Shown here: piece after piece, positions 41,799-62,093 of the stretch
Numbering within the stretch: the stretch's first letter is position 1
Layout of the letters: each line of letters opens with the position of its first letter
Assembly: GCA_963804165.1 (NCBI GenBank)
Contig: CAWDPO010000017.1
Span: 96,001 to 160,000 of the forward strand
Origin: an uncultured delta proteobacterium
Lineage (GTDB): Bacteria; Desulfobacterota; Binatia; UBA9968
Reading direction: 5' to 3'
Length of the DNA stretch: 64,000 nt
Made by a program: the position numbers and the translations under genes
The notes under the pieces: model-generated
Databases searched by the model: none
What the model was told of the DNA's origin: nothing
Seen by the model: only the letters and a program-made list of their open reading frames with translations

Positions 41799-41816
41799 CG
41801 GAACTTGGCGGATCGG

Positions 41817-42359: not shown

Positions 42360-42406
42360 TTCACTTCTCCTTTAGTACGCGGCTTAATTTCGTTTCGTCT
42401 GATCAA

Positions 42407-42763: not shown

Positions 42764-42815
42764 ATCGCCTCCTAGCTTTTGAACTTTTCGCTCCGTTCGG
42801 TCGAGCAGCGACTAG

Positions 42816-42831
42816 AGCAACGGATATGCCA
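42816..42831 (-). promoter_or_regulatory. Sigma-54 (-24/-12) promoter
   Basis: Minus strand TGGCAT-ATCCG-TTGCT about 50 bp upstream of the lipoprotein start. Confidence 0.7.
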
Positions 42832-43196
42832 GGGATCCAAACGGCATTCGCTATCTGATTTTTACTACGTCGCGCCAGAACGCCCTTCGACAGACTCCGT
42901 AAAAATTACGCGAGGCAGGTGAAGCTGGATGGCTCCAAGGCATGATGAAATTTGGCGCGTCTCGGTGCACAGACTCTTGGAAGAAGCGCTTACGGCAATT
43001 ACTACGTTGAATTGGATGATGCAGGGGAGGCAAAGATGATTGTCCGCGACGGGTATCAGGCGGTTCCGTAACCGCACGGCGATGACATTTCTTTCCCTTG
43101 AAAGCCAACTTGCCGCCGTTGTAGAGCTGAGACGGCATCGTGTGCCCGGGAAGATGTTGACAAGACCCCTCGTGGGACTTCGCCAAGGAGGCCAAA

Positions 43197-44180
43197 ATGA
43201 CTGTGCGGTTTGCGTCCGCGCTTACTCTCTTAGCCATCGCGCTCTATTTCGCGCCGGCTGATGGGCAAGAGAAAACCAGGATCGTTTTGGGCGCGTCCAG
43301 TAAGACTTTGGGATACAGTCCGCTTTGGGCAGCCACGAAGAAGGGTTTTTTTGACCAGCAGGGCCTCGACGTGCAATTGGTCCTGCTGCGCGGTGTGCCG
43401 ATGACTTTGCAGGCCCTGGCGGCGGGCTCGCTACACTTCGGCTCCGGCGGCCCGGAGCCTTACATCGAAGCGTCGGAGCGCGGCCTCGACTTCGTCGTCA
43501 CCGGCGGGATCATAAACGGCATCGCCCAGTTCTTGATCGCCGGTAAGAATTACAAAACCTATGAAGACCTCCGCGGCGCGACCTTCGGCACGGCATCATT
43601 GACCGGCGGCACGATCACGGCGCTTAGAGAAGCTCTCAAGCTCAAGGGCCTCGAGTATCCGCGCGATTACAAACTGCTCGTCATCGCCGGCGGGTCTTCG
43701 GCCAATCTTGCCGCGCTGCAATCCGGCCAGATCGCGGCGACGACGGTGGCGGTGCCGCTCAACTACGCCGCGGAAGAGTCAGGACTCAACGTCATCGGCC
43801 GGCTCAGCGAGGGGATCCCGCATTTTCAAACCAACGCGCTGGTGGTGCGGCGATCTTGGGCGGAAAAGAACCGCCCGGTCATGGTCCGTTTCATGAAAGC
43901 GATGGTGCTGACCTTTCGCTGGATGTTCGAGAATAGAGATGCTGCCGTTGAGTTCCTCTCCAACGAGATGAAATTGAAGCCTCTCCATGCGCGCAAGGGC
44001 TGGGAATTCTATACGCAGAATCGCTTTTGGCCGCCGGACGGTGACGTGACTATGGAAGGAATGAAGAACAATATCCGGATTTACGCTGAGCAAACCGGCG
44101 CGAAGGAGCCTCTACCGGATGTGAGCAAATATGTCGATCAAAGCTATTTGCGCGAAGCATTGAAGGAGATCGATAAGTGA
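43197..44180 (+). CDS. ABC substrate-binding protein (NMT1/THI5/SsuA-like)
   Basis: Signal peptide; PLWAATKKGFFDQQGLDV, LAALQSGQIAA, YVDQSYL. Confidence 0.88.
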   Translation: MTVRFASALTLLAIALYFAPADGQEKTRIVLGASSKTLGYSPLWAATKKGFFDQQGLDVQLVLLRGVPMTLQALAAGSLHFGSGGPEPYIEASERGLDFVVTGGIINGIAQFLIAGKNYKTYEDLRGATFGTASLTGGTITALREALKLKGLEYPRDYKLLVIAGGSSANLAALQSGQIAATTVAVPLNYAAEESGLNVIGRLSEGIPHFQTNALVVRRSWAEKNRPVMVRFMKAMVLTFRWMFENRDAAVEFLSNEMKLKPLHARKGWEFYTQNRFWPPDGDVTMEGMKNNIRIYAEQTGAKEPLPDVSKYVDQSYLREALKEIDK

Positions 44181-44267
44181 TAGCAATCTCACTTTGTACA
44201 AATCGAATATAGATTTTGATGCTTTAGTGTCCGAGGGTCAGAACCGACAAGTCTCCTTTCGATGGAT

Positions 44268-45176
44268 TCAGACCAGCTTCTTCACTTTCGTGTGACTGCC
44301 TCGCGCCAAAAGGGCGTCGATTAAAGATCGATGCAACGACTTGGCCGCTGCGAACTTTCTATAGATCACTGAGACTTCCATCGTTCCAATTTCACGCGTC
44401 ATATCGACGGATTGAAGGTTTCGCGATTGTCTCAGTAAACAGGTGTCGTGGACGAAACCGATGCCTAGTCCAAGTTCGACGAATTCCATTATGGTGTCGC
44501 ACGTACCGGCCTCTAGTATGTTTTCCGCCTCAATGCCATACCTTGACAGAGCTGCATCCACCAACTTTCGCGTCGGCGTCGGGCTGGTGTGAAGAACCAC
44601 CCGGTAATTCGTGATGTCTGCCAAAGATGGTTTCTTCCTCTGCGCTAGCGGGTGTCGCGCCGGAAAAATCAGGTGCATCCTGCTCGTGAACAGAGGCTGT
44701 TTTTGAATATCGTGCGGAACCTTTGTAAACCAGCCCACGGCGGCATCGATGGCGCCGTCGCTTAGCAGGGGCACCGCCTCGCGTGGGTAGCGGGAAAGCA
44801 CCGTCAGTCGAAGGTCTGGATGGCCTTGGCTAAACGCCGCGATGCGCGGCGCGAAATGCTTCGGTAGATCGCTTGAAAAAGCTATCGTCAATTTCTCGGA
44901 GTAGCCGGGAGATCCTTTCGTCGCTGACTCTTGCAGTCGGTTGAGGGCGGCCAAAATAACCTCCGTTTGTTTTAATAGGACAGCGCCGGTTTGCGTTAAA
45001 ACGAGTTTGTTTGGATGACGATCGAAGAGTTGGACGCGCAGGTCTCTCTCGAGTTTCTTGATTTGCAGGGAGATGGCCGGTGAGGTGAGTTTGAGATAAT
45101 TCGCGGCCATTTTGAGGCTGCCGTACTTTCCGACAAAATGGAATGCGCGCAGATTTTTTAAATCCATATCCGGCAA
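44268..45176 (-). CDS. LysR family transcriptional regulator
   Basis: AANYLKLTSPAISLQIKKLE..LFDR..LTQTG; VELGLGIGFV; divergent from the operon at 45346. Confidence 0.95.
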   Translation of the reverse strand: MPDMDLKNLRAFHFVGKYGSLKMAANYLKLTSPAISLQIKKLERDLRVQLFDRHPNKLVLTQTGAVLLKQTEVILAALNRLQESATKGSPGYSEKLTIAFSSDLPKHFAPRIAAFSQGHPDLRLTVLSRYPREAVPLLSDGAIDAAVGWFTKVPHDIQKQPLFTSRMHLIFPARHPLAQRKKPSLADITNYRVVLHTSPTPTRKLVDAALSRYGIEAENILEAGTCDTIMEFVELGLGIGFVHDTCLLRQSRNLQSVDMTREIGTMEVSVIYRKFAAAKSLHRSLIDALLARGSHTKVKKLV

Positions 45177-45345
45177 ATTTCGACATCGACAAAAATGCGA
45201 TGTTTATCGAGGAACCAAGATTTTTTGCGGCTTGTTCGATTAAGCAAACGTGAAGCTACTATATAGCAAGAATTAATCTTGACAAACCCACAGTTCCGCG
45301 AAATGGTGCGCTCAGTTCAAACCTATCGGCAGGAGGTCATCAATC

Positions 45346-46410
45346 ATGGCGATTTTTCTATCTCACGGCGGAACATCCGTTTACGATTCAAATGGCCTTT
45401 CGGACGAGGTACTGGTTGGAACTGTTGCAGGAATTTTCAGGATTCGAAAGAGCGGCTCCAACCGGTGGAGCGTCAGCGAACGGCACCTCGAGGGGCTGCA
45501 CATTCATACCTTGGTGCTCGAGCCCTCGAGTGGATTGTTGTTTGCCGGCGCTCACAAAGGTTCGCTGCACGCGAGTGCGGACGGCGGAAAATCATGGCAG
45601 CACCGAGACAACGGAATCACCAAGAAAGATATCTATTGTTTGAGTTTCACGAAGCGCCAAGCCGGCGTGAAGCTATATGTCGGGACCGATCCGGCGCACC
45701 TGTTCGAAAGCGATGACTTGGGCGAGAGTTGGACAGAGATTCCCTCGCTGCGCGATGTGCCGAGCGTGGACAAGTGGTTTTTTCCGGCGCCGCCGAAATT
45801 TGGCCATGTCAAAAACGTCGCGATTAACTGGCGCGATCCAAACGTCGTCTACGCGTGTATCGAGCAGGGCGGACTGCTCAAGACCACGAATGGTGGCCGG
45901 TCGTGGCAGGAACTGCATGGCTTCGATGACGACGTGCATAGAGTCTTAATTTCTCCGTCGAACAGCGAACGCCTCTTCTTGTCCACGCGCGCGGGAATTT
46001 TACAAAGCGACGATGCCGGCGAGAGTTGGAATCCTCTGCCCATGGCATCGACCCACATCGGCTACCCCGATGCCCTGATCGTTCATCCCAAACGCGAAAA
46101 CGTGATGTTCACTGCGGGCGCCGCGAGCCGTCCGCCGTTTTGGTTACAGACGCATGCCGCGGATGCTCGAATTGCGCGAAGTACGGACAGCGGAAAGAAT
46201 TGGGAAGTGATGCAGAACGGCCTACCGGAGAAAATCCACGGTAACGTGGAAGCGATGGCTATGGAAGTTTACAACGGCTCTTTTGGGCTTTATGCGGGTA
46301 CCACCGATGGCGAGGTCTTTTTTAGCGACAATGAAGGGAATGATTGGAGCAAGATCGTCGAGGGACTGCCGCCGATTTCCAAGGCCCATCACTACTTGAT
46401 CATAAGATAG
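45346..46410 (+). CDS. Asp-box (BNR) repeat beta-propeller protein, cytoplasmic
   Basis: Repeated S/T-x-D/N-x-G-x-S-W boxes (SADGGKSW, SDDLGESW, TTNGGRSW, SDDAGESW, STDSGKNW, SDNEGNDW); no signal peptide. Confidence 0.88.
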   Translation: MAIFLSHGGTSVYDSNGLSDEVLVGTVAGIFRIRKSGSNRWSVSERHLEGLHIHTLVLEPSSGLLFAGAHKGSLHASADGGKSWQHRDNGITKKDIYCLSFTKRQAGVKLYVGTDPAHLFESDDLGESWTEIPSLRDVPSVDKWFFPAPPKFGHVKNVAINWRDPNVVYACIEQGGLLKTTNGGRSWQELHGFDDDVHRVLISPSNSERLFLSTRAGILQSDDAGESWNPLPMASTHIGYPDALIVHPKRENVMFTAGAASRPPFWLQTHAADARIARSTDSGKNWEVMQNGLPEKIHGNVEAMAMEVYNGSFGLYAGTTDGEVFFSDNEGNDWSKIVEGLPPISKAHHYLIIR

Positions 46411-46436
46411 GGCTCGAAATCCGGGGAAGCGATCGA

Positions 46437-48020
46437 ATGGCATACTACAAGGGCCTGAGAGATTTGCTCGAGGTTCTCGAGCGTCACGGGAAGCTTGTCC
46501 GCATTTCTCGGCCGATCATCAAAGAAACGGAGTTGGTTCCTCTGGTCAGGCTTCAATTTCGCGGGTTGCCCGAGTCCAAGCGCAAAGCCTTTCTGTTTGA
46601 AAATGTCACGAGCGTGACCGGCAAAAAATATCCGGGCTCGGTTGCGGTTGGCACCTTTGCCGCCTCGCGCGAGGTTTACGCCCTTGGCATGATGTGCGAC
46701 GCCGCCGATATCGGTGAAAAATGGGTGAGGGCGTTGACCCATCCCATTCAGACGAGGACCGTCGATTCCGGCTGCTGCCAGGAGGAAGTGCACGTCGGAG
46801 AAAACCTGCTGGCGGAAGGCCTCGACGAATTACCCGTGCCGGTGAATACGCCCGGCTTTACCGGAGCGCTGCGCACGACTGCATCCCACGTGATCACCAG
46901 GGACATAGAAACCGGTGTGCAAAACTGCGGCTGCTATGCAGGTAAGTTCCTGGATCGAAACTTGATTGGGCTATCCATCGGGCCGACGCATCATGGCTCG
47001 ATACATTGGCGCAAGAGCAAAGAGAAGGGAATTTCCCCGCCCGCAGCCATCGTTATCGGCGCGCCGCCGAACATCGCTTATACCTCCGTCGCTTCGCTTC
47101 CGTACGGAGTGGATGAGCTCGCCGTCGCCGGTGGAATAGCCAACGAGCCGGTCGAGATGGTCAAATGCAAGACCATAGACCTGGAAGTGCCCGCCCATTC
47201 AGAAATCGTTATCGAAGGAGAGGTCTCCATCGATCGAAGGGTAGGATCGGCGTCCTTCGGGGAGTTTACCGGCTATATGTGCAAAGGCGCGCCGAACACC
47301 AACTATTTGATGAAAGTGACCGCCATCACCCACAGGAAGAATCCGATTTACAGCGTGTTTCTCAGTCAAATGCCACCGAGTGAAAGCAGCAAAATCGTTC
47401 AGATTGCCTTGGAGAACGTTTTTTACAAACACCTGCGGCACGATTGCAACATATCAGGAGTGATGGAGATTGCCTTTCCGGAATCCGGCGGCGGACGGAT
47501 GATTTGCATCATCCGCATGAAGAAACGAAATCCGAGCGACGTTTGGCAGGCGCTGAGCGCCGCAAATGGATTCGCTTCGGATCGCGCCAAAATTATCATT
47601 GTCGTCGATGAGGACATAGATCCCAAGGATCAGGAGGCGGTGAATTGGGCTCTGAGCTTTCGCATGCAGCCTCATCGCGACATTCACATCATGCGCGGCA
47701 GAACCGCGGGACTGGACTATTCCGCCTATGATCCGGCCGGGCCGCGCGAGGCCAGGATTTATCCGGAAGGGTTGGGGGCTTCATCGCTGATGATCGACGC
47801 GACCCTCAAATGGCCCTATCCGCCGATCTCCTTGCCCAAGAAGGAATACATGACTCGCGCCATCGAGTTATGGAATGAGCTGGAATTGGGGCCGCTCGAC
47901 TTGAAGTCTCCTTGGCATGGTTACGATCTTGGTTGCTGGTCTCAAGAGGACGAAATCAACGCGGAGTTGATTACGAGCGGCAACTACAAAGAGGTCGGGA
48001 AAAAATTAATGAGGCCCTAG
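46437..48020 (+). CDS. UbiD family (prFMN) protein with altered active site
   Basis: AFLFENV, VKCKTIDLEVPAHSEIVIEG, FGEFTGY, SQMPPSESS, IIIVVDEDIDP, VNWALSFR, IDAT. Confidence 0.93.
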   Translation: MAYYKGLRDLLEVLERHGKLVRISRPIIKETELVPLVRLQFRGLPESKRKAFLFENVTSVTGKKYPGSVAVGTFAASREVYALGMMCDAADIGEKWVRALTHPIQTRTVDSGCCQEEVHVGENLLAEGLDELPVPVNTPGFTGALRTTASHVITRDIETGVQNCGCYAGKFLDRNLIGLSIGPTHHGSIHWRKSKEKGISPPAAIVIGAPPNIAYTSVASLPYGVDELAVAGGIANEPVEMVKCKTIDLEVPAHSEIVIEGEVSIDRRVGSASFGEFTGYMCKGAPNTNYLMKVTAITHRKNPIYSVFLSQMPPSESSKIVQIALENVFYKHLRHDCNISGVMEIAFPESGGGRMICIIRMKKRNPSDVWQALSAANGFASDRAKIIIVVDEDIDPKDQEAVNWALSFRMQPHRDIHIMRGRTAGLDYSAYDPAGPREARIYPEGLGASSLMIDATLKWPYPPISLPKKEYMTRAIELWNELELGPLDLKSPWHGYDLGCWSQEDEINAELITSGNYKEVGKKLMRP

Positions 48021-48092
48021 GCCTAATTTGACGACCAACCGAATGCGCATACCGGGACATCGTAAAAAAACCTTAATCGGAAAGGGACGTTT

Positions 48093-49229
48093 ATGACCGT
48101 TGATACCCTCGTCGACATGGATGAGTTTCAGCACTGCTACTTCACCGGACCGGATACGTTGGCGGGAAAATACATGCGGATGTTTTGGCATCCGATCTTT
48201 CGGTCGGAGGATCTCAAGCCGGGATGGACGCAGCCGGTTCGGATCATGAACGAGGATTTTACCCTGTATCGAAGTGAAGCGGGCAATGCTCATCTCGTCG
48301 ATTACCGGTGTGCCCATCGCGGCGTGCCGCTGACGGTGGGATGGGTGGAGGGCGAATGTATTCGGTGCCGCTTTCACGGCTGGAAATACGACAGCACAGG
48401 CCAATGCGTGGAGCAGCCTGCGGAGGATGAATCTTTCGCGGCAAAGGTCAAAATTCGGAGCTTTCCAACCAAGGAATATTTGGGCCTCGTCTTCGCGTAT
48501 TTCGGCGAGGATGCGCCGCCGGAGTTTCCTCGCTATCCGGAATTCGAGAACAAGACTATTTGGATCGAGACCTACATCCGGCCTTGCAACTTCCTTAACA
48601 ACATCGAGAACGACCCCATTCATATTCCCTTCACTCACCGTGAGTCGGAGTTTTTTATCAACCGGCCGGTGGAGATCCCGTCAGTAAGCATAGAAGAGAC
48701 CGAATACGGAATCCTGCTGCGCTCCGATTTCAAGAGCGGCCGTTATCACGTCACCCATCACGGCATGCCCAACGTCTTATGCTTTCGCCGCGGCGGGGAC
48801 CGCGATCATTTGGCGTTCCGCGTGCCCATCGACGACGATCAACACGTGAGTTTTCAGGTGGACGTGCAATTCAAGACGGGAAACGAAGCGGATGAGGCGG
48901 TCCAGAAGCGGCATGCGGCGAGGAGCGGCCAGCTGGGGCGTTCGCCCAACGAAATGGGCGAAGCGGTTCTGCGCGGCCGGATGCGCATTCAGGACATCGA
49001 GGGCGATGAAAAGGCGAATATCGTATGGATACAGGATTACGCTGTGCAAGTCGGTCAGGGTCCGGTGCGCACGCGAAAAAAGGAGTGGCTCGGCCGCTCG
49101 GACAAGGCGTTGATTATGCAGCGCAAGCTTTGGGAACGTGAGCTAAAGGCTGTGGCCGAAGGCCGGCCGATCAAGCGATGGGTATGGACGGAACGGTTGG
49201 CGGCCATCGGCTCGTACAATCCCCTGTGA
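48093..49229 (+). CDS. Rieske non-heme iron oxygenase alpha subunit (phthalate 4,5-dioxygenase-like)
   Basis: CAHRG...CRFHGW Rieske ligands; ENDPIHIPFTH and IQD mononuclear Fe ligands. Confidence 0.93.
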   Translation: MTVDTLVDMDEFQHCYFTGPDTLAGKYMRMFWHPIFRSEDLKPGWTQPVRIMNEDFTLYRSEAGNAHLVDYRCAHRGVPLTVGWVEGECIRCRFHGWKYDSTGQCVEQPAEDESFAAKVKIRSFPTKEYLGLVFAYFGEDAPPEFPRYPEFENKTIWIETYIRPCNFLNNIENDPIHIPFTHRESEFFINRPVEIPSVSIEETEYGILLRSDFKSGRYHVTHHGMPNVLCFRRGGDRDHLAFRVPIDDDQHVSFQVDVQFKTGNEADEAVQKRHAARSGQLGRSPNEMGEAVLRGRMRIQDIEGDEKANIVWIQDYAVQVGQGPVRTRKKEWLGRSDKALIMQRKLWERELKAVAEGRPIKRWVWTERLAAIGSYNPL

Positions 49230-49259
49230 GTTTGGGTCGTAGTCACTCAGGATGAAAAC

Positions 49260-50399
49260 ATGACGCGGTATACGTCGATCAGAACGGCAATCGTGATGTG
49301 GATTTTCTTGGGCTTCCCTTTCTTGTGGGCAAACTCAGCCAGCGCGGGCGAAGCCAAGCCTAGTGCGCAGGCCGCCTGGGAGAAGGTCGTGGCTGCGGCG
49401 AAGAGCGAGGGCGCGCTGACGATCTACGGCAACACGGGCTACGACGCCATTTTCACTGAGTTTGAGAATAGATATCCGGGCATCAAGGTCGTCTACGTCA
49501 CCGGCCGCGGCGGCCCCGACATTGTGCCGCGGATATTGAGCGAGCAGAGGGCGGAGAAATATTTGGGCGACTTGTTCCTGGCCGGCCCCACCCCGGCGTT
49601 TACCTTGCACCAGGGCAAAGCCTTGGATCCGATCAAGCCGGCTTTGATTCACCCCGAAGTGTCGGATGAATCGAAGTGGTGGCAAGGCAAGCATCAATAC
49701 GTCGATAAGGAAGGCGCGTATATTTTTACTTTCAACGGCACGTTTCGGGTCGACGTGGTTTACAACAGCAACTTGGTCAATCCCAAAGAATTAAATTCGT
49801 ACTGGGATCTGATCAACCCGAAGTGGAAGGGCAAAGTCGTCTCATTCACGCAGATTACGGCGCCGCATAAATTTTTCTTTTACCAGCCGGAGCTCGGTCC
49901 GAAATTTTTAAGCCAGCTTTTCGGCCAGATGGATGTGATCAATAGCGCAGATATGCGTCAGATCGCGGACTGGTTGGGAGTGGGAAAGCACGCCATCGGT
50001 CTTTTCGTTTCTCCGGGTAACCGAAGCATCGGCAAGGCTCGGGAGCAAGGTCTGCCGTTGGGCATCTTCAAGGCGGACCATTTCAAAGAAGGCGTGGCGC
50101 TGCTGACGGCGGCGGGCTCCGGAGCTCTGCTCAAGCGCGCGCCGCATCCCAATGCAGCCAAGTTGGCGATCAACTGGCTGCTCTCTCGCGAAGGACAAAT
50201 CGCTTTTCAGAAAAATTATGTGAGAGAGACGGGCGCCGCCGATTCGTTCCGAACGGATATCCCCAAGGACGAAATACCCGTGGAATTCAGGCGCAAAGAG
50301 GGAGTCAAGTATCTGGACATCGATTCGGCGGAGTACATCGACCCCAAACCGGTTCAGGATTTTTACAACAAACTCTGGGGCGGTCGCACCAAGAACTGA
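49260..50399 (+). CDS. Extracellular solute-binding protein (copy 1)
   Basis: Signal peptide; AAAKSEG, SYWDLINPKWKGK, APHPNAAKLAINWLLSREGQ. Confidence 0.88.
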   Translation: MTRYTSIRTAIVMWIFLGFPFLWANSASAGEAKPSAQAAWEKVVAAAKSEGALTIYGNTGYDAIFTEFENRYPGIKVVYVTGRGGPDIVPRILSEQRAEKYLGDLFLAGPTPAFTLHQGKALDPIKPALIHPEVSDESKWWQGKHQYVDKEGAYIFTFNGTFRVDVVYNSNLVNPKELNSYWDLINPKWKGKVVSFTQITAPHKFFFYQPELGPKFLSQLFGQMDVINSADMRQIADWLGVGKHAIGLFVSPGNRSIGKAREQGLPLGIFKADHFKEGVALLTAAGSGALLKRAPHPNAAKLAINWLLSREGQIAFQKNYVRETGAADSFRTDIPKDEIPVEFRRKEGVKYLDIDSAEYIDPKPVQDFYNKLWGGRTKN

Positions 50400-50425
50400 A
50401 TCGATCAGCACAACAGGAGGAATCT

Positions 50426-51541
50426 GTGGCTGGCACAAACAATCCATCGGAACCGGTCATTTCGGCGCCTCCCTTGGAGACGGCGTATACCCAGTGGCTG
50501 CGCGAGGAGGAAGTTCCCAAACACGAAGGCTCCTGGGCGGATCTCAACGCGGTCGCGGTTGAGCCGTGGAAGCGGCTGGGGTGCCTCGGGGCGTATGTCA
50601 GTCTAGCGGAGCAACAATCGCTCGACGCCTACGTTGCCGAGATTCCCGCGGGTGGCAAGACTCATCCGGCTCGCCATCTATACGAAGAGGCCATTTATGT
50701 CCTCCGGGGCCGGGGAGCAACGACCGTTTGGTACGATGGCATGCCGAAGCAAACCTTCGAATGGCAGGAGGGCAGCCTTTTTTCGCCGCCGCTTAACTGT
50801 TGGCGCCAGCACTTCAACGGCGAGGGCAATGAACCGACCAGATTTGTCAGCATCACCACCGCGCCGCACACCATCAATCTTTTCCGCGATAAAAAATTTA
50901 TCTACGACAATCCGTTTGTCTTCAGCAGCCGCTATCAGACCAACCCCAAGTATTTTAGCGGCGCCGGTGTGCAAGAGACCTACACTTTGCCGGATTCTCC
51001 CGGCCGTCACCGAAAAGTTTGGAAGACCAATGTCGTCCCCGATGTTCTTCACTTCGAAAATCTTACGGACCACAGCCGCGGCATGTACGCTCCCGGGGCG
51101 GCGCTCTCGGTGCATTTCAATCTCGCGGAAAACACCATGGGCGGGCACATCGCCGACCAAAAGCCGGGCTATTATAAGAAAGCCCACCGTCACGGCCCGG
51201 GCGCGCATCTGATCATTCTGCGAGGCACGGGATATTCGTTGCAATGGTTGGAGGGACAGCCGCGGGAGAGAGTCGACTGGAAGCCAGGTATCGTCTTCTC
51301 GCCGCCGGACATGTGGTACCACAACCATTTGGTCACCGGCAAAGAGCCGGCGCGACTGCTGGCGGTCCACTGGGGAGGTGCGCACATCGGCGTCAATCGC
51401 GGGACGGAGAAGAACTACGGCGATCAGATCGAATACGAGGACGAGGATCCGGAGATTAGAAGGGAGTTCGAGCGCGAGTGCAAGAAAAATGGCGTCACGG
51501 TGCAGATGCCGCAAGTGACTTACCGCGGTTCAAAAACGTAG
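50426..51541 (+). CDS. Bicupin protein (gentisate-dioxygenase-like fold)
   Basis: RHLYEEAIYVLRGRG..PPLNCWRQHFN and KAHRHGPGAH..PPDMWYHNH; GTG start after AGGAGG. Confidence 0.85.
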   Translation: MAGTNNPSEPVISAPPLETAYTQWLREEEVPKHEGSWADLNAVAVEPWKRLGCLGAYVSLAEQQSLDAYVAEIPAGGKTHPARHLYEEAIYVLRGRGATTVWYDGMPKQTFEWQEGSLFSPPLNCWRQHFNGEGNEPTRFVSITTAPHTINLFRDKKFIYDNPFVFSSRYQTNPKYFSGAGVQETYTLPDSPGRHRKVWKTNVVPDVLHFENLTDHSRGMYAPGAALSVHFNLAENTMGGHIADQKPGYYKKAHRHGPGAHLIILRGTGYSLQWLEGQPRERVDWKPGIVFSPPDMWYHNHLVTGKEPARLLAVHWGGAHIGVNRGTEKNYGDQIEYEDEDPEIRREFERECKKNGVTVQMPQVTYRGSKT

Positions 51542-51593
51542 CGAATAAAAGTGGCCAAACGCAGCCAAAACGGATGGAAAGGAGAAGTCCGAT

Positions 51594-52529
51594 ATGAAGC
51601 GGATGCAGGTCCAAGTAGGTCCAAACGGCAGTCCTCTCAATCGACCGAGCAGTTTGGAGGATTGTTTACGCAAAGATTTCCAGGAAAAGAAGCACGCGAT
51701 CAAAATGAGCGAGGTCAAGCTCGAGCCCGTCAAGGGAACTGAAGGTTACCGCAGCGGGTGGTATGACTTCGGCAGCCAAGTCGTGGCGTGGGGTCTCACC
51801 GAAATCAGCCCGGGCGGTGCCGGACCCCTGCATCGCCAGTTGTGTGAATCGACGATGTTCGTCTTGGAAGGCGAAGGCTATACCGTCGTCAATGGCCGGA
51901 GATTCGATTGGAAAAAGGGCGATGTGCTATTCGTCCCGTTGTTCGCATGGCATCAGCATGTCAACACCGGTCAGCGTGCGGCCAAATACGCGCGCATGAG
52001 CACTGCGCCGATCTATAAGTTTCTCGGCTTGGGTGGCGAGGAAAACTTGTCGCCGCCGGCGTCCTGGGACCGTGCCGACGAAGAATCGGGGCCGCTTGGC
52101 AAAGTGCTGTTGAAATTCGAAGACGGGCTCGGACGAGAAAATTGGGAGAAATCCCGCGACGGTCAAACCGTCACGTTCGATTTCCAATATCGAATTCCGA
52201 CGACTCGCCGCGTTCCTTCCCGGATCATGCCCAACGAGAGCGGTGGCATGCACCGCCACGCCAGCGAGGCGCAAATCTTCATCTATCAAGGCAAAGGCTT
52301 TTCGACCCTCAACGAGAAGCGGATCGAGTGGGAGGCCGGGGACGTTGTGCGGGTTCCGCTTTTCGCCTGGCACCAACACACGAACACGGGCAACGAGCCG
52401 GCGATCTGGCTCAAACACACTTCGGCGGCACTCTATAAACAGATCGGCTTGCTCATGCGCGATGCGAGACCGGGATTCGGCGGCAGCGACGATGTCGCGG
52501 AGTTCAAAGACGATTTCGCACCGTATTGA
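51594..52529 (+). CDS. Bicupin protein
   Basis: LHRQLCES..PLFAWHQHVN and MHRHASEA..PLFAWHQHTN. Confidence 0.85.
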   Translation: MKRMQVQVGPNGSPLNRPSSLEDCLRKDFQEKKHAIKMSEVKLEPVKGTEGYRSGWYDFGSQVVAWGLTEISPGGAGPLHRQLCESTMFVLEGEGYTVVNGRRFDWKKGDVLFVPLFAWHQHVNTGQRAAKYARMSTAPIYKFLGLGGEENLSPPASWDRADEESGPLGKVLLKFEDGLGRENWEKSRDGQTVTFDFQYRIPTTRRVPSRIMPNESGGMHRHASEAQIFIYQGKGFSTLNEKRIEWEAGDVVRVPLFAWHQHTNTGNEPAIWLKHTSAALYKQIGLLMRDARPGFGGSDDVAEFKDDFAPY

Positions 52530-52570
52530 TCCGTAGCGACCGGCGTATCTACGTTGAAGATGGACGACCC

Positions 52571-53696
52571 ATGAAGCGATTCTTGTCGTTTTCATTAAGC
52601 GCGTTGACGCTCTTCATGCTCTTTTCATGGGAAGCTGCTCCGGCTTTTTCCGCCGAAGCGGTCAATACTCAAGCATCATGGGATAAACTGGTACGCGCCG
52701 CTAAGGGCGAAAAAGAACTCACCATCTACGGCAACGTGGGCTACGAGTCGATCTTTGCCGAGTTTTCCAAGAAATTTCCCGACATCAAGCTCACCTATGT
52801 CACGGGACGAGGATCCGCGGATATCGTGCCGCGCCTGCTGAGCGAGCAGCGCGCCGGAAAGAACCTGGGAGATATTTTTTTGGCCGGTCCTAACGGGACT
52901 TACGTCATCCATCAGGCCAAGGGTCTCGATCCTTTGAAGCCAGCGTTGATGCTGCCCGAGGTTGTCGACGAATCGAAGTGGTGGCAGGGAAAACATCAGT
53001 ACGTCGATAAGGAAGGAGCTTACGTATTTACTTTCAACGGCACCTTGCGCGTCGACGTCGTAGTCAACACAAACCTGGTAAATCCAAAAGAATTAAGTTC
53101 CTATTGGGATTTGATCAATCCTAAATGGAAAGGAAAGGTCGTCGCATTTACGCAGATAACGGCTCCGCACAAGTTTTTTTTCTATCAACCGGAGCTCGGT
53201 CCAAAATTCTTAAATCAGCTTTTCGGCCAAATGGATGTTACCCCGAGCAATGACATACGGCAGATAGCGGACTGGTTGGGGGTTGGAAAGTTCGCTATCG
53301 CGTCTTTTCACTTCTCCAGGCAATCGCAATATCGGCAAGGCGCGGGAACAAGGATTGCCGATCGGCAGCTTCAGACCGGATCATTTTAAAGAAGGCGCTG
53401 CGTTGCTTACTGCGGCGGGTGCCGGCGGACTCCTCAAAGGAGCGCCGCATCCCAACGCCTCCCGTCTAGCGTTCAATTGGCTATTATCACGCGAAGGGCA
53501 GATTGCTTTTCAAAAGAACTATGCCAGGGAAACCGGAGCGGCAGATTCTTTTCGGATAGACATTCCAAAAGAGGACATCCCGGTGGAGTTTCGGCGCCAA
53601 GATGGAGTAAAGTACTTCGACGTGGACAGCGTCGAATATATCGACCCCAAGCCGGTTAGAGATTTCTACGGTAAACACTGGGGAACACGAAAATAG
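52571..53696 (+). CDS. Extracellular solute-binding protein (copy 2), +1 frameshift near 53301
   Basis: Close paralog of 49260-50399; removing one C at ~53301 restores IGLFTSPGNR. Confidence 0.85.
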
Positions 53697-53762
53697 CCGC
53701 CAAGAGCGCCGGGAACTGCAGATGATGGGCATCGATGCTTTCGAAATGCGAGGTAAGAGCTG

Positions 53763-54551
53763 ATGTCTGATTATGTCTTGTTCGAGCAGCGTGGCCATGT
53801 GGCGATCGTGACGATCAATCGGCCCGAGCGCATGAACGCGCTCGGCTCCGAAGTGCGCCAGGGACTCGTCGACGCGTTTCTCAAAGTGCGCCAGGAGCCG
53901 TCGATCCACGTCGCCATCGTCACCGGTGCGGGCGACAAGGCTTTTTCGGCGGGCGCGGACCTGAAGGAGCACAATGAACTGTTCCAAAAGAAATCCTATC
54001 GCGTCGGACCGGACTACGGGGCGTTGGATGAGCCGCCGCATTCGAGCACGTTGGCCATAGAAACATACAAGCCGGTCATCGCAGCGGTGAACGGTTATGC
54101 GCTGGCCGGCGGATGTGAGCTGAGCTTGGCCTGCGATATTCGTATCGCTGCGGAAAACGCCCGCTTCGGCCTGCCGGAGGCGAAGCGCGGTCGCGGCGCA
54201 AACTTCGCCACGGTGATGCTGCAATACTTGATTCCGCGCGGCATCGCGATGGAAATGCTTTTCACCGGCGAGCAGATCTCAGCGCAGGACGCGTTGCGAT
54301 TCGGCCTGGTCAATCGCGTGGTGCCATTGCCCGAGTTAATGCCGACGGCGATCGCCTTGGCGGAAAAAATCGCCGAGAACGCGCCGGTGTCGTTACGACG
54401 CATCAAAGAGCTCTCCGTGAAATCCATCGGCTCGCCGTTGTTCTTTGCGTTGAAAATGGCACCGGGACCTAGTCCGTACGAAAGCCAAGACGCGCGTGAA
54501 GGCGCTAAAGCTTTTGCCGAAAAGCGCTCGGCGAAATACAAGGGCGACTGA
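53763..54551 (+). CDS. Enoyl-CoA hydratase/isomerase family protein
   Basis: AFSAGADL, KPVIAAVNGYALAGGCEL, FGLPEAKRG (both catalytic Glu present). Confidence 0.93.
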   Translation: MSDYVLFEQRGHVAIVTINRPERMNALGSEVRQGLVDAFLKVRQEPSIHVAIVTGAGDKAFSAGADLKEHNELFQKKSYRVGPDYGALDEPPHSSTLAIETYKPVIAAVNGYALAGGCELSLACDIRIAAENARFGLPEAKRGRGANFATVMLQYLIPRGIAMEMLFTGEQISAQDALRFGLVNRVVPLPELMPTAIALAEKIAENAPVSLRRIKELSVKSIGSPLFFALKMAPGPSPYESQDAREGAKAFAEKRSAKYKGD

Positions 54552-54649
54552 TCGAAGTTAAACGACCAACACTGGCCGTGACAAACGCTGCTGTTCACAT
54601 TCAACGTTCGTGTCTGAGGATTGGTTCTCCCTCTGAGGTTGTGTCGCAA

Positions 54650-54772
54650 TGTCATTCTGAGGAGTGGAGCGACGAAGAATCTGCTTTTTGGTTTTGTAGT
54701 TTCGGAACGCCAAACGCGATTCGACACGAGTACCGAAGAAAAGCAGATCCTTCGCTAGGGCTCAGGATGACG
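54650..54772. repeat. Inverted REP doublet inside the operon
   Basis: gtcattctgaggagtggagcgacgaagaatctgc ... gcagatccttcgctagggctcaggatgac. Confidence 0.7.
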
Positions 54773-54914
54773 CGGGCGCGATTTTTCGTATGCGAGAAGG
54801 ACAGGATGAGGGTCGCGCGGAGCAATTCGCCCCCCACCGCAGTCCTCTTCCAAAGGGAGAGGAAGTAATGCTCTTAATGAGTCATCCGACGTTATTGGTT
54901 TGCAGGAGGAATCC

Positions 54915-56087
54915 ATGAGCAATTATCCCAGAGTGGTTTTGACTGAAGAAGGCATGCGCGACGGTTTGCAAATAGAGCGCGCGGGGGTTCCGGTCGCCGA
55001 CAAGATTCGTCTGCTCGACGCGTTATCCGAAACGGGTCTGAAGGAAATCGCCGTCGGCTCCTTCGTCAGCCCGCGCTGGGTGCCGCAGATGGCCGACATT
55101 GATGAACTCGTCAAAGGATTTCATCCCAAGCCCGGCGTGACTTACACCGCCACCGCGCTAAATGATATGGGTCGCGAACGATTGCGACAATATATTCCGC
55201 CGCTATCGGACGAGAAATACCAGGCGCAGACCGCGGTCTATCTTTGCGATGTGTTCGCGCAGCGCAACATCAATCGCACTATCGCGCAGCAGATGGAGCG
55301 CTGGCCGAAAGCGATCGAGGAAGCGAAAAGAAAAGACGCCAAAGAAGCAGGCATCAGCATTAGCGCTGCCTGGGGCTCGAACTGGACGGGCGAAGTATCG
55401 CAAGAAGATCGGATGACAATGTTGGAACGACAACACCGGCTCTGGCAAGAAGCCGGGATTCTCGTAACCAAGATCGGTATCTCCGATCCGATGGGTTGGA
55501 ACATGCCGGATCAAGTCGAGCGCCAATTGGCGGCGATCAAAGAGCGCTGGCCGGCGATCAAGAGCTTCAATCTGCATCTGCACAATACCCGCGGCATGGC
55601 GCTCACGTCATCCTATGTCGCGCTCAAAAATCTCGACGCCGACGATACACTGCGCTTGCAACCGGCCATCGGCGGCATGGGTGGCTGTCCGTTTTGCGGC
55701 AACGGACGGTCGGCCGGCCTGGCGCCGACGGAAGATTTGATCCACATGATGGAAGGCATGGGCATCGAAACCGGCGTCGACCTGGAAAAGTTGATCGAAG
55801 CGGTTTGGTTGGCGGAAGAAATTGTCGGCCATCCGCTTTGGGGCCATGTTTCCAAAGGCGGGCCGCGACCGAAAGGCAAAAAACTTTATCCGATGAATAT
55901 GCCGTTCGTGGAAACTTTGGAACATGCACGTCACTTCATCAAGGGACCCGCCGCTTACGAGGGCGCGCCGTCGCCGTGGAAAGAAACCATCAAGAGCCCG
56001 CAGCGGCCGGAGACGATGAACGGCAACAGCGATTCGGCGCCGTCGGTTTCAGCCGAAGCAGTCGGCGGCCGGTGGTTGCCGTCGTAG
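54915..56087 (+). CDS. HMG-CoA lyase-like DRE-TIM enzyme
   Basis: EEGMRDGLQ, GSFVSPRWVPQMA, LHLHNTRG, GGMGGCPFC, PTEDL. Confidence 0.88.
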   Translation: MSNYPRVVLTEEGMRDGLQIERAGVPVADKIRLLDALSETGLKEIAVGSFVSPRWVPQMADIDELVKGFHPKPGVTYTATALNDMGRERLRQYIPPLSDEKYQAQTAVYLCDVFAQRNINRTIAQQMERWPKAIEEAKRKDAKEAGISISAAWGSNWTGEVSQEDRMTMLERQHRLWQEAGILVTKIGISDPMGWNMPDQVERQLAAIKERWPAIKSFNLHLHNTRGMALTSSYVALKNLDADDTLRLQPAIGGMGGCPFCGNGRSAGLAPTEDLIHMMEGMGIETGVDLEKLIEAVWLAEEIVGHPLWGHVSKGGPRPKGKKLYPMNMPFVETLEHARHFIKGPAAYEGAPSPWKETIKSPQRPETMNGNSDSAPSVSAEAVGGRWLPS

Positions 56088-56141
56088 CGGCGTTTTGAAC
56101 CCATCGCGTTCTAACCTCTTTCATCAATCTTAGGAGTCTCC

Positions 56142-58229
56142 GTGTCCGACCCGCGCGTCCGTTTACTCTTCGAGCCGCAATCGATTGCCATTGTCGGAGC
56201 CTCGTCGGACCTGACCAAGGCGTCAGGGCTGCCGCTGCGCAATATTATCAATTCACAATTCACCGGAAAGATTTATCCGATCAATCCACGAGTGAAGGAA
56301 ATCAGCGGACTGACGTGTTACGCCAGCGTGACCGATCTGCCGGAAGCTCCCGACGTCGCGGTGCTCATGGTCGACGCAAAGCTGACGGCGCAGATCTTGG
56401 AAGAATGCGGCAAGAAGGGCGTCAAGACCGCAATCATTGGCTCAGCCGGATTCAGCGAAGCGGGGGCGGAAGGCGCGGAGCGCCAAGCGCAGGCAAGCGA
56501 CATCGCGAAACGATACGACCTGCGGGTCTGCGGCCCCAACTGTCACGGCACGTTCAACGTTTTGAAGAACATTCCGTGCGGCTATGATCACGCGTTTGCG
56601 CTGCCGCTAAAGCCAGGGCCGGTGGCGATCGCGTCACATAGCGGCGCTTTGCTCGGTGTGCTTGGACACCGGGCCGTGCAAGCGAATCAAGGTTTTAGCT
56701 ATCTCGTCAGCAACGGCAACGAGATGGATTTGGATCTTTGCGATTTTACCGAATTCTTCCTCGAAGACCCGTCGACCAAAGTTGTCGCCGTGCTTATGGA
56801 GGGACTTAAAAATGGCCGGCGTTTTCTAGAGCTCGCCGAGCTCGCGCACGAGCTCGGCAAAACCATTGTCGTGCTCAAAGTCGGCAAGTCCGAGCGCGGC
56901 GCGATCACGACGCTAGCTCACACGGCGCGCATGGCCGGGTCGGGCGAGGTGTATGACGCCGCGTTCCGCCAATACGGCGTGATATCCACGGACACGGTGG
57001 AAACATTTTTAGGCGCGGCGCAAATGGCCGCGCATCAACCGGTGCCGCGCGGCGGTCGGATCCTCGTCATGACGTCGAGCGGCGCGGGCGCGAGCTTGAT
57101 GGCCGACAAAGCGAGCGAGTACGGCATCGAGCTGGCGGATATTTCCGACGAAGCCAAGGCGCACATCCCGCAACGACGCACGGCGATTTTAACCAATCCA
57201 TTCGATACTGCGGGCGCGTCGCGCAGCCCGGGGTTTCTTTCCAGCGTGTGCGAGGCCTTCGCCGCGGACAAGGCCAACGATTGCCTCTTGATGTATCTCG
57301 GCCCGCTCGCCGTGCGTCACGAGTATGCCCGTAACTTTGCCTCTGCGTCGGAAAAATTCAGCAAGACGGCTGCCGCCATTATCATGCTCAGCGAAGCCGA
57401 TGTGCGCGAGATTTTTCAGGCACACCATGTGCCGGTATTTGATGCTGCGACGGACGCTTGCTTCAAGACGTTGCGCGCATACATTGACCACGGCCAGTTT
57501 GTCGAGCGTCACCATGCCGCTCGGAAGAAGACTGGCGCTGCCGCGCCGGCGCGGCCGGAGGCAGCGGCCATTCTGAAGGCGCCTCAAGGATCGTCCATCC
57601 TCGCGCAGTCGGCGACTGTGAGACTGCTCCACGGTTATGGGCTAAAGTGCGCCGAAAGTGTGTCCGCAGGGACGAGCGATGAAGCAAGAACTGCGGCAAG
57701 AACTCTTGGTTATCCGGTAATGTTAAAAGCGCTGGTCCCAGATATCGCGCATCGAAGCGATGCCGGTCTCGTCAGCCGAACAATTTCCAACGACGCCGCG
57801 CTCGAAGATGCATTTGCCGCGCTGGCGGCCAATGCCCGGCCGCTGCTTCGGGGAGAGTTTGCCCTCAGCGTCGAGAAATTTGTGCCGCACGATTTTGAAG
57901 TGATTCTCGGTGTTAAGTATGACGCCACCTTCGGTCCGGTGATTCTCTGCGGCCTCGGCGGCGTCTTTACCGAAGTGCTCAAGGACTATGCGCTGCGGTT
58001 GGCGCCGCTCGCACCGATGGACGCGGAGGAGATGCTTGCGTCGCTCAAAGCGTTTCCGGTCTTGAAGAAATCCGCCGGGGGGTTGACTGCTTTGAACAAA
58101 GCCCTGTTGCAGTTATCGGATATCGCGGTCGAGCTCGAGGGTAAAATTACAGCGCTGGATATAAACCCGATCGCCTTGAGCGTGGACTCTGCGGAAATCA
58201 CCGTGCTCGATGCTAAAGTCCATCTTTGA
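56142..58229 (+). CDS. NDP-forming acyl-CoA synthetase (acetate-CoA ligase family, fused alpha-beta)
   Basis: PQSIAIVGAS, GPNC, phospho-His AHTA, NPFD, C-terminal ATP-grasp with FGPV..GLGGVF and LDINP. Confidence 0.92.
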   Translation: MSDPRVRLLFEPQSIAIVGASSDLTKASGLPLRNIINSQFTGKIYPINPRVKEISGLTCYASVTDLPEAPDVAVLMVDAKLTAQILEECGKKGVKTAIIGSAGFSEAGAEGAERQAQASDIAKRYDLRVCGPNCHGTFNVLKNIPCGYDHAFALPLKPGPVAIASHSGALLGVLGHRAVQANQGFSYLVSNGNEMDLDLCDFTEFFLEDPSTKVVAVLMEGLKNGRRFLELAELAHELGKTIVVLKVGKSERGAITTLAHTARMAGSGEVYDAAFRQYGVISTDTVETFLGAAQMAAHQPVPRGGRILVMTSSGAGASLMADKASEYGIELADISDEAKAHIPQRRTAILTNPFDTAGASRSPGFLSSVCEAFAADKANDCLLMYLGPLAVRHEYARNFASASEKFSKTAAAIIMLSEADVREIFQAHHVPVFDAATDACFKTLRAYIDHGQFVERHHAARKKTGAAAPARPEAAAILKAPQGSSILAQSATVRLLHGYGLKCAESVSAGTSDEARTAARTLGYPVMLKALVPDIAHRSDAGLVSRTISNDAALEDAFAALAANARPLLRGEFALSVEKFVPHDFEVILGVKYDATFGPVILCGLGGVFTEVLKDYALRLAPLAPMDAEEMLASLKAFPVLKKSAGGLTALNKALLQLSDIAVELEGKITALDINPIALSVDSAEITVLDAKVHL

Positions 58230-58251
58230 GCACAAAGCGGAGGGTCGTTTC

Positions 58252-59307
58252 ATGGTGAACTTATTTAAGGGGTCGACATGGTGGCTGTGCCTGTCGCTGG
58301 GATGTGTAGTGACTCTGACATCCGAGGCCTTCGCCCAGAGCGAGCAGGACTTCAAGGGCAAATCCATCAGGCTCATTATTGGCACGAGCACGGGAGGCGG
58401 CGTCGATCTCTACGCCCGTCTGGTCGGTCAGTTTCTCGGCAAACATTTACCGGGCGAACCGACCATTATTCCGCAGAACATGCCCGGCGCCAGTTCTTTG
58501 GTCGCCGCTAACTTCGTTTACAATATGACTAAACCCGATGGGCTCACGTTGGGCGCATTGCAAGGCGGAGTGTTTTTCGATCAGATCCTCGGGCGCGACA
58601 CGGCAAAATTCGAGTGGTCGAAATTTACCATGATCGGCTCGCCGGAACGGCTCGAAGCCCAGCTCTATATGAGAGCGGACAGCCCGTACAAGACCCTCGA
58701 CGATATCCGGCGCGCCGTGGAACCGCCGCGCTGCGGCGGCGCGGGAACTGGCGCCACAGGCTATTTTGTCCCACGGGTTTTGGAAGAGACTCTTGGTCTC
58801 AAGTTTAAAACGGTCACCGGTTATCAAAGCGGCGGCGAGATCGATATCGCGGTGGAACGCGGCGAGCTCCACTGCCGCGCCTTCGATATCGGTAGTTTCG
58901 TGGGCCGAGAGCCGACGCGGACGTGGTTCAAAAACGGATACGTGAAGAGCCTGATTCAGACCGGACGCAAGCGCGATGCGCGGCTCGGCGACGTGCCGAC
59001 ACTTTTTGAGTTAATGGACAAGCAGAAGACTCCCGACGCCCCGCGCCGCATGGCCACGGTCGTTCTCTCGTCCGGTGGATTTGGCCGGCCGATGGTGGCG
59101 CCGCCGGGGATGTCTGCGGATCTCTCGCGCACAATTCGCGACGGCTATGCAAAAATGCTCAAAGATCCCGAGTTCATCGCCGAGGTGAAGAAGCGTCGCT
59201 ACGACCTGGAGCCGGTGTCGTGGGAAGAAATGCAGAGCCTGGCGAAGGAAGTCACCAGCCAGCCGCCGGACGTGATCGAGCGGGTGAAAAAGATATTGGA
59301 AAATTGA
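58252..59307 (+). CDS. Bug/TctC-like tripartite tricarboxylate transporter substrate-binding protein
   Basis: GGGVDLYARL, NMPGASSLVAAN, KPDGLTL, VTGYQSGGE, AVERGE. Confidence 0.88.
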   Translation: MVNLFKGSTWWLCLSLGCVVTLTSEAFAQSEQDFKGKSIRLIIGTSTGGGVDLYARLVGQFLGKHLPGEPTIIPQNMPGASSLVAANFVYNMTKPDGLTLGALQGGVFFDQILGRDTAKFEWSKFTMIGSPERLEAQLYMRADSPYKTLDDIRRAVEPPRCGGAGTGATGYFVPRVLEETLGLKFKTVTGYQSGGEIDIAVERGELHCRAFDIGSFVGREPTRTWFKNGYVKSLIQTGRKRDARLGDVPTLFELMDKQKTPDAPRRMATVVLSSGGFGRPMVAPPGMSADLSRTIRDGYAKMLKDPEFIAEVKKRRYDLEPVSWEEMQSLAKEVTSQPPDVIERVKKILEN

Positions 59308-59325
59308 GCCAGCAGCTGAAAGCAT

Positions 59326-59360
59326 CCCTCACCTCAATCCTCTCCCAGCGGGAGGAGGTT
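59326..59360. repeat. REP-like palindrome (CCCTCACC..CCTCTCCC..GGGAG family)
   Basis: ccctcacctcaatcctctcccagcgggaggagg; related copy near 54803-54865. Confidence 0.55.
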
Positions 59361-59493
59361 TTGGAGGTATAAAACTGCCAGCGCCGGCTTTGAGCGGCTT
59401 CAAACTCAAGCCTCCGGCGGCCGGTGCGACTAGCCGACTCAATCTGGCGCGGACGATTGGCGCTGTCAAGTAATCGGTCGGCGGAACGATTTT

Positions 59494-60567: not shown

Positions 60568-60568
60568 G

Positions 60569-61243: not shown

Positions 61244-61260
61244 GGGATAAAATTCGGCGC

Positions 61261-62067: not shown

Positions 62068-62093
62068 AGTTTCAGGGACGGACTAAGTCGCAG

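Follow-up and report, generated by a model that had tools for sequence, protein, structure and literature searches.

A run of catabolic-type genes in an uncultured Binatia bacterium is probably a composite of an inserted cassette and an older coenzyme A-dependent operon

Positions 44268-59307 of a 64,000-nucleotide window (the whole stretch of DNA analysed here, from an uncultured bacterium of the lineage Binatia) carry a LysR-type regulator gene and, diverging from it, a long run of co-oriented genes for a UbiD-family decarboxylase, a Rieske oxygenase, cupins, solute-binding proteins (SBPs) and enzymes of coenzyme A (CoA) chemistry, and the question raised by this locus is whether the run encodes one pathway. 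The original prediction, made from the sequence alone, held that it does: an oxygenase-based upper half would degrade a substituted aromatic or heteroaromatic acid and the opened product would be processed as a CoA ester. The analysis described below favours, with a probability of about 0.6, a composite locus made of two units that differ in history, one of them a cassette that was inserted before the other, a CoA-dependent organic-acid operon; two units are more likely than one pathway. Genes were called from an open reading frame (ORF) listing together with Pfam and NCBIfam profile matches, and the host genome is a 7.5-Mb metagenome-assembled genome that is 81% complete. All of the predicted genes were present at the places given for them, as follows.

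44268-45176, minus strand: LysR-type regulator (PF00126 and PF03466), head-to-head with the propeller gene
45346-46410, plus strand: BNR/Asp-box (Ycf48/sortilin-like) beta-propeller (PF15902, PF14870, PF02012)
46344-48020 (ORF; likely start ATG 46437), plus strand: UbiD-family decarboxylase, dependent on prenylated flavin mononucleotide (prFMN) (PF01977, PF20696, PF20695)
48093-49229, plus strand: Rieske non-haem iron oxygenase alpha subunit (PF00355)
49260-50399, plus strand: SBP1, SBP_bac_1 periplasmic solute-binding protein (PF01547), with signal peptide
50426-51541, plus strand: bicupin cup1 (PF07883)
51594-52529, plus strand: bicupin cup2 (PF07883 twice)
52526-53696, plus strand: SBP2, paralog of SBP1, two overlapping ORFs, frameshifted
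53763-54551, plus strand: crotonase-family enoyl-CoA hydratase (ECH; PF00378, 203.6 bits)
54900-56087 (ORF; likely start ATG 54915 behind GGAGG), plus strand: enzyme like 3-hydroxy-3-methylglutaryl-CoA (HMG-CoA) lyase (HMGL), with C-terminal extension (PF00682)
56142-58229, plus strand: fused NDP-forming acyl-CoA synthetase (ACS; PF13380, PF13607, PF13549)
58210-59307, plus strand: TctC-type solute-binding protein (PF03401, 44.2 bits)
44181-53762, no strand assigned: inserted cassette of 9.6 kb (LysR plus eight genes), from the blastn collinearity of its flanks in five congeners
53763-59307, plus strand: lower CoA module ECH-HMGL-ACS-TctC, its order kept in relatives' loci
54625-54791, no strand assigned: dispersed intergenic repeat, MITE/REP-like (resembling a miniature inverted-repeat transposable element or a repetitive extragenic palindrome) with inverted arms, in the ECH-HMGL spacer

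The conservation of the lower module was examined in 100 relatives, all species representatives, where absence means not found in the genomes searched. The HMGL-like gene was found in 26 of 101 genomes (the host's own included), and 11 of 30 congeners carry it at 72-92% identity. Nineteen loci around its matches in relatives were fetched. The results showed that ECH, HMGL and ACS stand in the window order in 13 of the 19, with TctC after ACS in 11, and that the ECH orthologues of these 13 loci are 75-93% identical; one further locus ends at a contig edge before ECH. Homologues of the Rieske oxygenase, cup1, the propeller and LysR were found in none of the 19 loci, the minor exceptions to a cassette-free neighbourhood being a UbiD homologue (48%) in G046, described below, weak SBP matches (26%) in two loci and a cup2-like match (29%) in one. 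In metagenomes, about 88 lyase protein clusters are at least 81% identical, and cup1 gave one cluster at 85% and one at 73%. The close lyase homologues are labelled 'Deltaproteobacteria bacterium' and the more distant ones 'Candidatus Binatia'. The comparison across relatives shows ECH-HMGL-ACS-TctC to be an older, ancestral four-gene operon that is independent of the cassette.

A blastn comparison of window positions 36000-64000 with the relatives' loci showed that 36000-44180 and 53763-59308 are collinear in five congeners, G018, G029, G003, G027 and G012 (the loci compared being L094, L096, L097, L098 and L111). The gap between the gene for an NMT1-type SBP and ECH is 158-224 bp in four of the five. 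At the same site, G018 (L094, G018:C13 6700-9321) carries 2.6 kb of different DNA, which includes a gene for an AraC-type regulator divergent from ECH, and the site seems variable and prone to insertions. Because the flanks are collinear in five congeners and adjacent in four, positions 44181-53762 are an insertion. The GC content is 54.8% in the cassette and 57.6-58.3% in the flanks. Neither a remnant of an insertion sequence (IS) nor a tRNA was found at the cassette ends, and since the window contains no tRNA genes there is no tRNA-linked integration site in it. Likewise, no Rfam element was found in 40000-62000 at E up to 0.1, and no convincing target-site duplication at the cassette ends. 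A junction similarity of about 30 nucleotides (GATGCTTT...GAGG...) was discounted as a target duplication, an 8-mer match in stretches this short being expected by chance about 1 time in 7. The contigs from four public DNA runs on 43000-60000 were short, low-depth pieces, none of which runs across either junction or an empty site; one contig that skips from 43757 to 56829 (side 25, with 38 other letters between) was not regarded as trustworthy. Among public RNA runs, none was listed as containing 49400-59300.

These comparisons do not bear out the claim that an opened-ring product is processed as a CoA ester in one pathway, given that the lower module stands alone in the 13 loci described above and the upper half is an insertion. 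Conserved synteny, by which the original prediction could be judged, was not observed either: the ten-gene order occurs in no genome searched (79 species-representative loci and 100 relatives), and the junction of the two parts was found on two short contigs only.

The families of the cassette have a distribution of their own. A tblastn census of the host genome (E 1e-10 or better, at least half of the query covered) gave 40 UbiD loci, 34 Rieske loci, 57 SBP1-family (SBP_bac_1) loci, 23 cup1-family loci and 14 propeller loci. The counts for the lower genes were 113 TctC, 21 crotonase and 6 ACS loci, and a single locus with the HMGL query. In fifteen clusters of the genome, two or more of the four families UbiD, Rieske, bicupin and propeller occur together, the propeller being present in 5 of these clusters. 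Only one of the 23 cup1-family loci, that of the window, has HMGL or ACS within 5 kb, and none of the 14 other mixed clusters does. In the relatives, cup1-family matches (E 1e-30 or better) were found in 94 of 101 genomes, and a single genome of 4.5 Mb has as many as 114 first-look candidates (these tallies take in three unpublished genomes, G005, G035 and G041); the best match in the 100 relatives is 57% identical for cup1 and 67% for the Rieske oxygenase. The neighbours of 79 cup1-family loci of other species include Rieske (21 loci), SBP (17), TctC-type (12), UbiD (9), propeller (5) and crotonase (3) genes, and HMGL or ACS was beside none of the 79, many of which end at contig edges. A UbiD gene (35-37% identical) lies upstream of a 64-67% Rieske homologue, on the same strand and within 1.2 kb, in all eight relatives' loci.

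A further accumulation is a 50-kb island of the host genome, nearly all plus-strand (G000:C33:43000-96000, L129-L131), with three bicupins, two UbiDs, many SBPs and seven Rieske genes that match LigXa_C at 25-116 bits (maximum 115.6). Two GFO/IDH/MocA oxidoreductases, an IS-type rve integrase, an MFS transporter and a LigB fragment are also encoded in the island, as is one ABC permease/ATPase pair that could serve orphan SBPs; no permease or ATPase gene adjoins SBP1 in the window. Across these loci the families of the cassette are shown to be expanded and shuffled, with a UbiD-Rieske pair that recurs.

The individual proteins of the cassette were compared with known families and structures. 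In the translation of the Rieske oxygenase, the 2Fe-2S motif CxH...CxxH (PF00355, 72.1 bits) is intact, as is the motif DxxHxxxxH of the catalytic domain, present as DPIHIPFTH. The catalytic domain is under the Pfam thresholds, scoring 12.4 bits on LigXa_C compared to a cut-off of 27 and to 24-27 bits for homologues that are 51-52% identical. Among solved structures 7fhr matches best (E 1e-38), with the alignment confined to the Rieske domain. JGI names homologues 'DDVA O-demethylase' (DDVA, 5,5'-dehydrodivanillate), an automatic name that is a lead only. The enzyme is probably related to the single-subunit LigXa/VanA/phthalate group.

The UbiD protein matches all three Pfam domains (PF20695, PF20696 and PF01977, the last at 170.9 bits) and is slightly below the TIGR00148 cut-off (238.9 vs 244.85 bits). 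Its closest solved structures are 6h6x and 6h6v (E 3e-47, over residues 6-432 of the protein from 46437), which we take to be the furandicarboxylate decarboxylase HmfF; the similarity to these nearest solved relatives is modest. Alignment with 6h6x, 7pda and 2idb showed that the EGPFGE/EGPYGD stretch of solved UbiDs is replaced by SASFGE, the first Glu being changed to Ser and the second acidic residue kept. The acidic pair of the EGPFG[ED] stretch, which presumably has a role in UbiD enzymes, is therefore not conserved as a pair, and the description of this protein as a variant UbiD was a fair one. The protein also differs from HmfF-type UbiDs by a C-terminal extension of about 70 residues and by the lack of furoyl-CoA genes nearby. 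A single UbiX gene was found in the genome, on another contig (C14:20793-21308; NF004685, 266.8 bits vs a cut-off of 188). The Pfam scan revealed no UbiX, FAH-type hydrolase or aldolase inside the cluster, which agrees with the predicted lack of the latter two, and no reductase or ferredoxin, the rest of the genome not having been searched for either. No signal peptide was evident on the propeller.

Gentisate and salicylate 1,2-dioxygenases are bicupins with a 3-His iron site. The cup1 family comprises 2569 homologues whose names are all generic, and H254, H256, H299 and H301 are invariant, with an HRH...H motif in the C-terminal barrel. The AlphaFold2 model of cup1 (pLDDT 84.6) has a bicupin fold with a His-rich iron site. 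Its best structural matches are gentisate 1,2-dioxygenase 3bu7 (Z 20.8, root-mean-square deviation (rmsd) 4.9, 277 residues aligned) and salicylate 1,2-dioxygenase 2phd (Z 20.7, rmsd 3.2, 255 aligned), with Z scores merely 1-2 above those of seed storage proteins and oxalate decarboxylase. A Foldseek search with the model returned generic bicupins only (TM about 0.47), and a protein-atlas search with cup1 gave cupin clusters without names. The second bicupin, cup2, is 26% identical to cup1 and matches 3bu7 at E 1e-18; on the gentisate 1,2-dioxygenase model TIGR02272 it scores 75.7 bits, where 442.1 would be needed, and cup1 does not match the NCBIfam gentisate dioxygenase model at all. In sum, cup1 resembles these dioxygenases in its fold and HRH motif, whereas cup1 and cup2 miss the family models and the HRH of cup1 lies in the C-terminal barrel. 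Of the two, cup2 is a distant relative of gentisate 1,2-dioxygenase, and neither bicupin belongs to the curated family. With intact iron motifs in the Rieske oxygenase, gentisate-dioxygenase-like bicupins and a UbiD, catabolism of a substituted aromatic acid remains a reasonable reading of the upper genes.

Several observations weigh against two separate units. All cassette genes except LysR are co-oriented with the lower operon, and SBP2 and ECH are separated by a gap of only 66 bp (53697-53762), in which no convincing promoter or terminator was found, the scan being at or below chance level (4 promoter-like sites vs 7.2 expected, and 18 terminator-like sites vs 19.7 expected). The cassette has no obvious enzyme for a ring-fission product, leaving room for the CoA genes. 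In one genome of another genus, G046 (L099, G046:C39 8812-12387), a 528-amino-acid UbiD that is 48% identical lies upstream of and divergent from ECH-HMGL-ACS, separated from ECH by a single unassigned ORF of 261 amino acids; this neighbourhood may be due to chance because there are about 40 UbiDs per genome. Finally, the SBP2-ECH junction is kept on two metagenome contigs from other samples, L127 and L128, and the joined arrangement has therefore persisted through some divergence. Among the contigs found, the shared junction is limited to these two short ones of near relatives.

Such observations would be expected if the locus were one LysR-controlled pathway, a reading that we consider unlikely. 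The DDVA/5-carboxyvanillate pathway of Sphingobium sp. SYK-6 uses LigXa, LigZ, LigY and LigW, and the strongest form of the one-pathway reading is a CoA-dependent analogue of it, in which the Rieske oxygenase would demethylate (as LigXa), a bicupin would open the ring (as LigZ) and the UbiD would remove a carboxyl group (as LigW). A branched unsaturated dicarboxylate would then be handed to the synthetase, the crotonase and the HMGL-like lyase, which would replace the hydratase/aldolase pair. Like the SYK-6 pathway, the locus encodes a Rieske oxygenase, here one probably related to the LigXa/VanA-type single-subunit group, with own-genome paralogs scoring on LigXa_C up to the maximum given above, and beside it a candidate ring-opening dioxygenase and an aromatic-acid decarboxylase. 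In addition to the shared orientation, the short gaps and the retained junction, this reading is favoured by the lack of an FAH-type hydrolase or aldolase in the cassette and by the JGI label on the Rieske homologues. It also draws on a UbiD proposed for 5-carboxyvanillate decarboxylation in Paenibacillus, as far as the part of that source consulted goes (PMC12673573).

However, the window Rieske does not score high enough for LigXa_C, the cluster lacks a LigY-type C-C hydrolase, bicupins stand here in place of LigZ-type extradiol enzymes and a UbiD in place of the amidohydrolase LigW, and binding-protein genes are interleaved with the enzymes. Moreover, the module occurs without the cassette in most of the relatives' loci fetched, the cassette is an insertion, HMGL and ACS are missing from the 79 cup1-family loci elsewhere and from the other mixed clusters of the genome, and crotonase adjacency is common, with a crotonase within 5 kb of 4 of the 34 Rieske loci. 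On balance, the composite of two units is preferred; the units may still have become coupled in function since the insertion, but a flow of the cassette product into the lower module is the less likely reading.

The metagenome contigs also bear on whether the cassette is still functional. SBP2 is 68% identical to SBP1 at the amino acid level and is split over two frames (52526-53389 and 53283-53696) by a 1-nucleotide offset near 53303; the spacing of the SBP1/SBP2 repeat shifts between 3303 and 3302, which marks the frameshift. The break means that SBP2 is a pseudogene or, alternatively, that the assembly contains an error here. Six contigs were obtained when metagenomes were scanned with cup2. 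The 8.1-kb L127 carries a Rieske gene (92%), SBP1 (85%), cup1 (85% at the amino acid level), a truncated cup2, what remains of SBP2 and the first part of ECH (87%). UbiD is missing from L127, its LysR-propeller pair is inverted as a unit, and a 660-bp deletion corresponding to window positions 52313-52972 fuses cup2 to SBP2. The 1.55-kb L128, at 82% DNA identity to 52278-53854, runs from the end of cup2 through SBP2, matched here in a single frame, into the beginning of ECH. Other gene orders were SBP-cup2-SBP-cup1 (L123), cup2-SBP (L126) and cup2-UbiD (L124 and L125). The contigs show that the cassette itself is undergoing rearrangement and partial loss.

It could accordingly be asked whether the cassette is the decaying remnant of a once functional module and the cluster does nothing coherent. 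We regard this as improbable. The frameshift in the window SBP2, the 660-bp cup2/SBP2 deletion and missing UbiD of L127, and in-frame stops in several paralogs elsewhere in the genome are consistent with decay; but the seven other cassette genes are full-length intact ORFs with conserved metal-binding motifs, SBP2 is unbroken on L128 and L126, and other ORFs in the window are fragmented as well, so that a fault in the assembly may account for the single-base shift. Partial-family ORFs in window positions 1-20000 include TPP_enzyme_N alone (725-1414), half a flavin reductase (12574-12882) and an aldehyde dehydrogenase ORF (14219-14992) that spans family positions 32-277 of 461. Together with the in-frame stops in paralogs, these partial ORFs imply many pseudogenes or assembly indel errors, which bears on the SBP2 frameshift.

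The cassette might also be non-catabolic and serve the modification or synthesis of a metabolite, for example by carboxylation through a reversible UbiD followed by oxygenative tailoring. UbiD enzymes are reversible, cupins and Rieske oxygenases are found in biosynthesis too, and BagN/FevL are among the weak NCBIfam matches of the UbiD. Nevertheless, three periplasmic binding proteins and a LysR regulator suggest uptake, the Pfam scan showed no synthase, ligase or export genes in the cassette, and the dozens of paralogous clusters, rich in SBPs, fit substrate scavenging better. This possibility is therefore highly improbable.

In the preferred reading, then, each unit would have its own substrate, and the substrates and reaction steps given here are those suggested by the encoded protein families. 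The cassette would have landed between the NMT1-type SBP gene and the lower operon. An aromatic carboxylate, possibly methoxylated and derived from lignin or humus, would be imported; the UbiD would decarboxylate it with prFMN from the single unlinked UbiX; the Rieske oxygenase, with a reductase encoded elsewhere, would O-demethylate or hydroxylate the product; and the gentisate-dioxygenase-like bicupins would open the ring, the whole being controlled by LysR. In the lower unit, the TctC-type protein would capture an organic, probably dicarboxylic, acid (unsaturated or branched), and the NDP-forming synthetase would form its CoA thioester. The crotonase would then hydrate a 3-substituted 2-enoyl-CoA, and the HMG-CoA-lyase-like enzyme would cleave the 3-hydroxy-3-substituted acyl-CoA to acetyl-CoA and a keto compound. 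Hydration followed by lyase cleavage is the known chemistry of 3-methylglutaconyl-CoA and HMG-CoA.

The proteins of the lower module were also compared with known enzymes. The HMGL-like protein matches PF00682 at 82.9 bits, above the cut-off, and HMG-CoA lyase structures at E 8e-41; on NF004283 it scores 193.8 bits, below the cut-off of 246. Its translation contains RDG, HxH and GGCP, which we take to be HMG-CoA lyase motifs. The ACS combines a CoA-binding, a succinyl-CoA-ligase-like and an ATP-grasp domain within a single polypeptide and is nearest to ADP-forming 4-hydroxybutyrate and 3-hydroxypropionate CoA ligases, the closest solved structure being the ADP-forming 4-hydroxybutyrate-CoA ligase 8wzu (E 1e-100); it is below every substrate-specific NCBIfam cut-off. 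The crotonase is generic, and no TctA or TctB was found by Pfam in the window region scanned. In the lower pathway of leucine and isovalerate, 3-methylglutaconyl-CoA hydratase and HMG-CoA lyase (LiuC/LiuE) act together, and here too a crotonase and an HMGL-family lyase stand side by side. Unlike in LiuC/LiuE systems, there is no carboxylase or acyl-CoA dehydrogenase, an NDP-forming synthetase that activates free acids and TctC being present instead, and the window lyase is under the NCBIfam HMG-CoA lyase cut-off, as given above. Riboflavin catabolism was considered for an acetoacetate end product and rejected, the pathway, in the part of the source consulted, using a P450, a xanthine oxidase and a thiamin enzyme and no CoA steps (PMC12746152).

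The 363-bp spacer between ECH and HMGL (54552-54914) houses the dispersed repeat of about 150 nucleotides, with inverted arms at 54648-54688 and 54739-54771. The genome contains about 30 full or partial copies, spread over 20 contigs or more, and one copy lies in the 50-kb island. In the public runs, sequence depth spikes at 54650-54688 and many loose ends occur at the borders of the repeat. The repeat looks like a MITE/REP-type element. Downstream of the cluster, positions 59494-63284 (minus strand) encode an ABC ATPase with a TOBE domain, a permease, an SBP_bac_11 protein and an HTH-PBP_like regulator, which look like a molybdate/tungstate-type uptake operon unrelated to the cluster. Upstream, at 19892-23064, there is a second CoA-dependent organic-acid module, which comprises genes for a family III CoA-transferase, an acyl-CoA dehydrogenase and a protein of the MaoC/mesaconyl-CoA-hydratase-like type.

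The original prediction knew of no characterised pathway with this gene set, and the literature searched (UbiD/Binatota, UbiD paralog expansion, LigXa/gentisate/UbiD, and HMG-CoA lyase with ADP-forming synthetase clusters, with supplements and subscription journals outside the scope) likewise contained no matching publication. The locus consists of known kinds of enzyme in a new combination, and the lineage-wide toolkit is the more unusual observation. A possible but tentative extension is that the clusters of SBP, UbiD, LigXa-related Rieske oxygenase, bicupin and BNR propeller represent a catabolic system of modular build, so far undescribed, in this uncultured lineage, operating with one UbiX and few ABC membrane parts. 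UbiD and Rieske would act as a conserved catalytic pair that removes carboxyl and methyl groups from many different aromatic acids of lignin or humus origin, the bicupins would be a new ring-opening class, and the window would show one such module being recruited before a CoA pathway.

A tidy run of co-oriented genes that resembles one new pathway is here a recent mosaic, which calls for caution; because the locus is a recent mosaic, the search for substrates should handle its halves separately. The bicupin family has thousands of members, with no characterised one among the database matches, and the lineage, abundant and uncultured in soil and groundwater, has shuffled clusters that encode dozens of paralogous UbiDs, LigXa-related oxygenases, uncharacterised bicupins and orphan binding proteins. 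The binding proteins offer a direct experimental way to the substrates. If these enzymes are active on lignin- or humus-derived aromatic acids, they would constitute a large untapped enzyme set of relevance to aromatic carbon turnover and to lignin valorisation.

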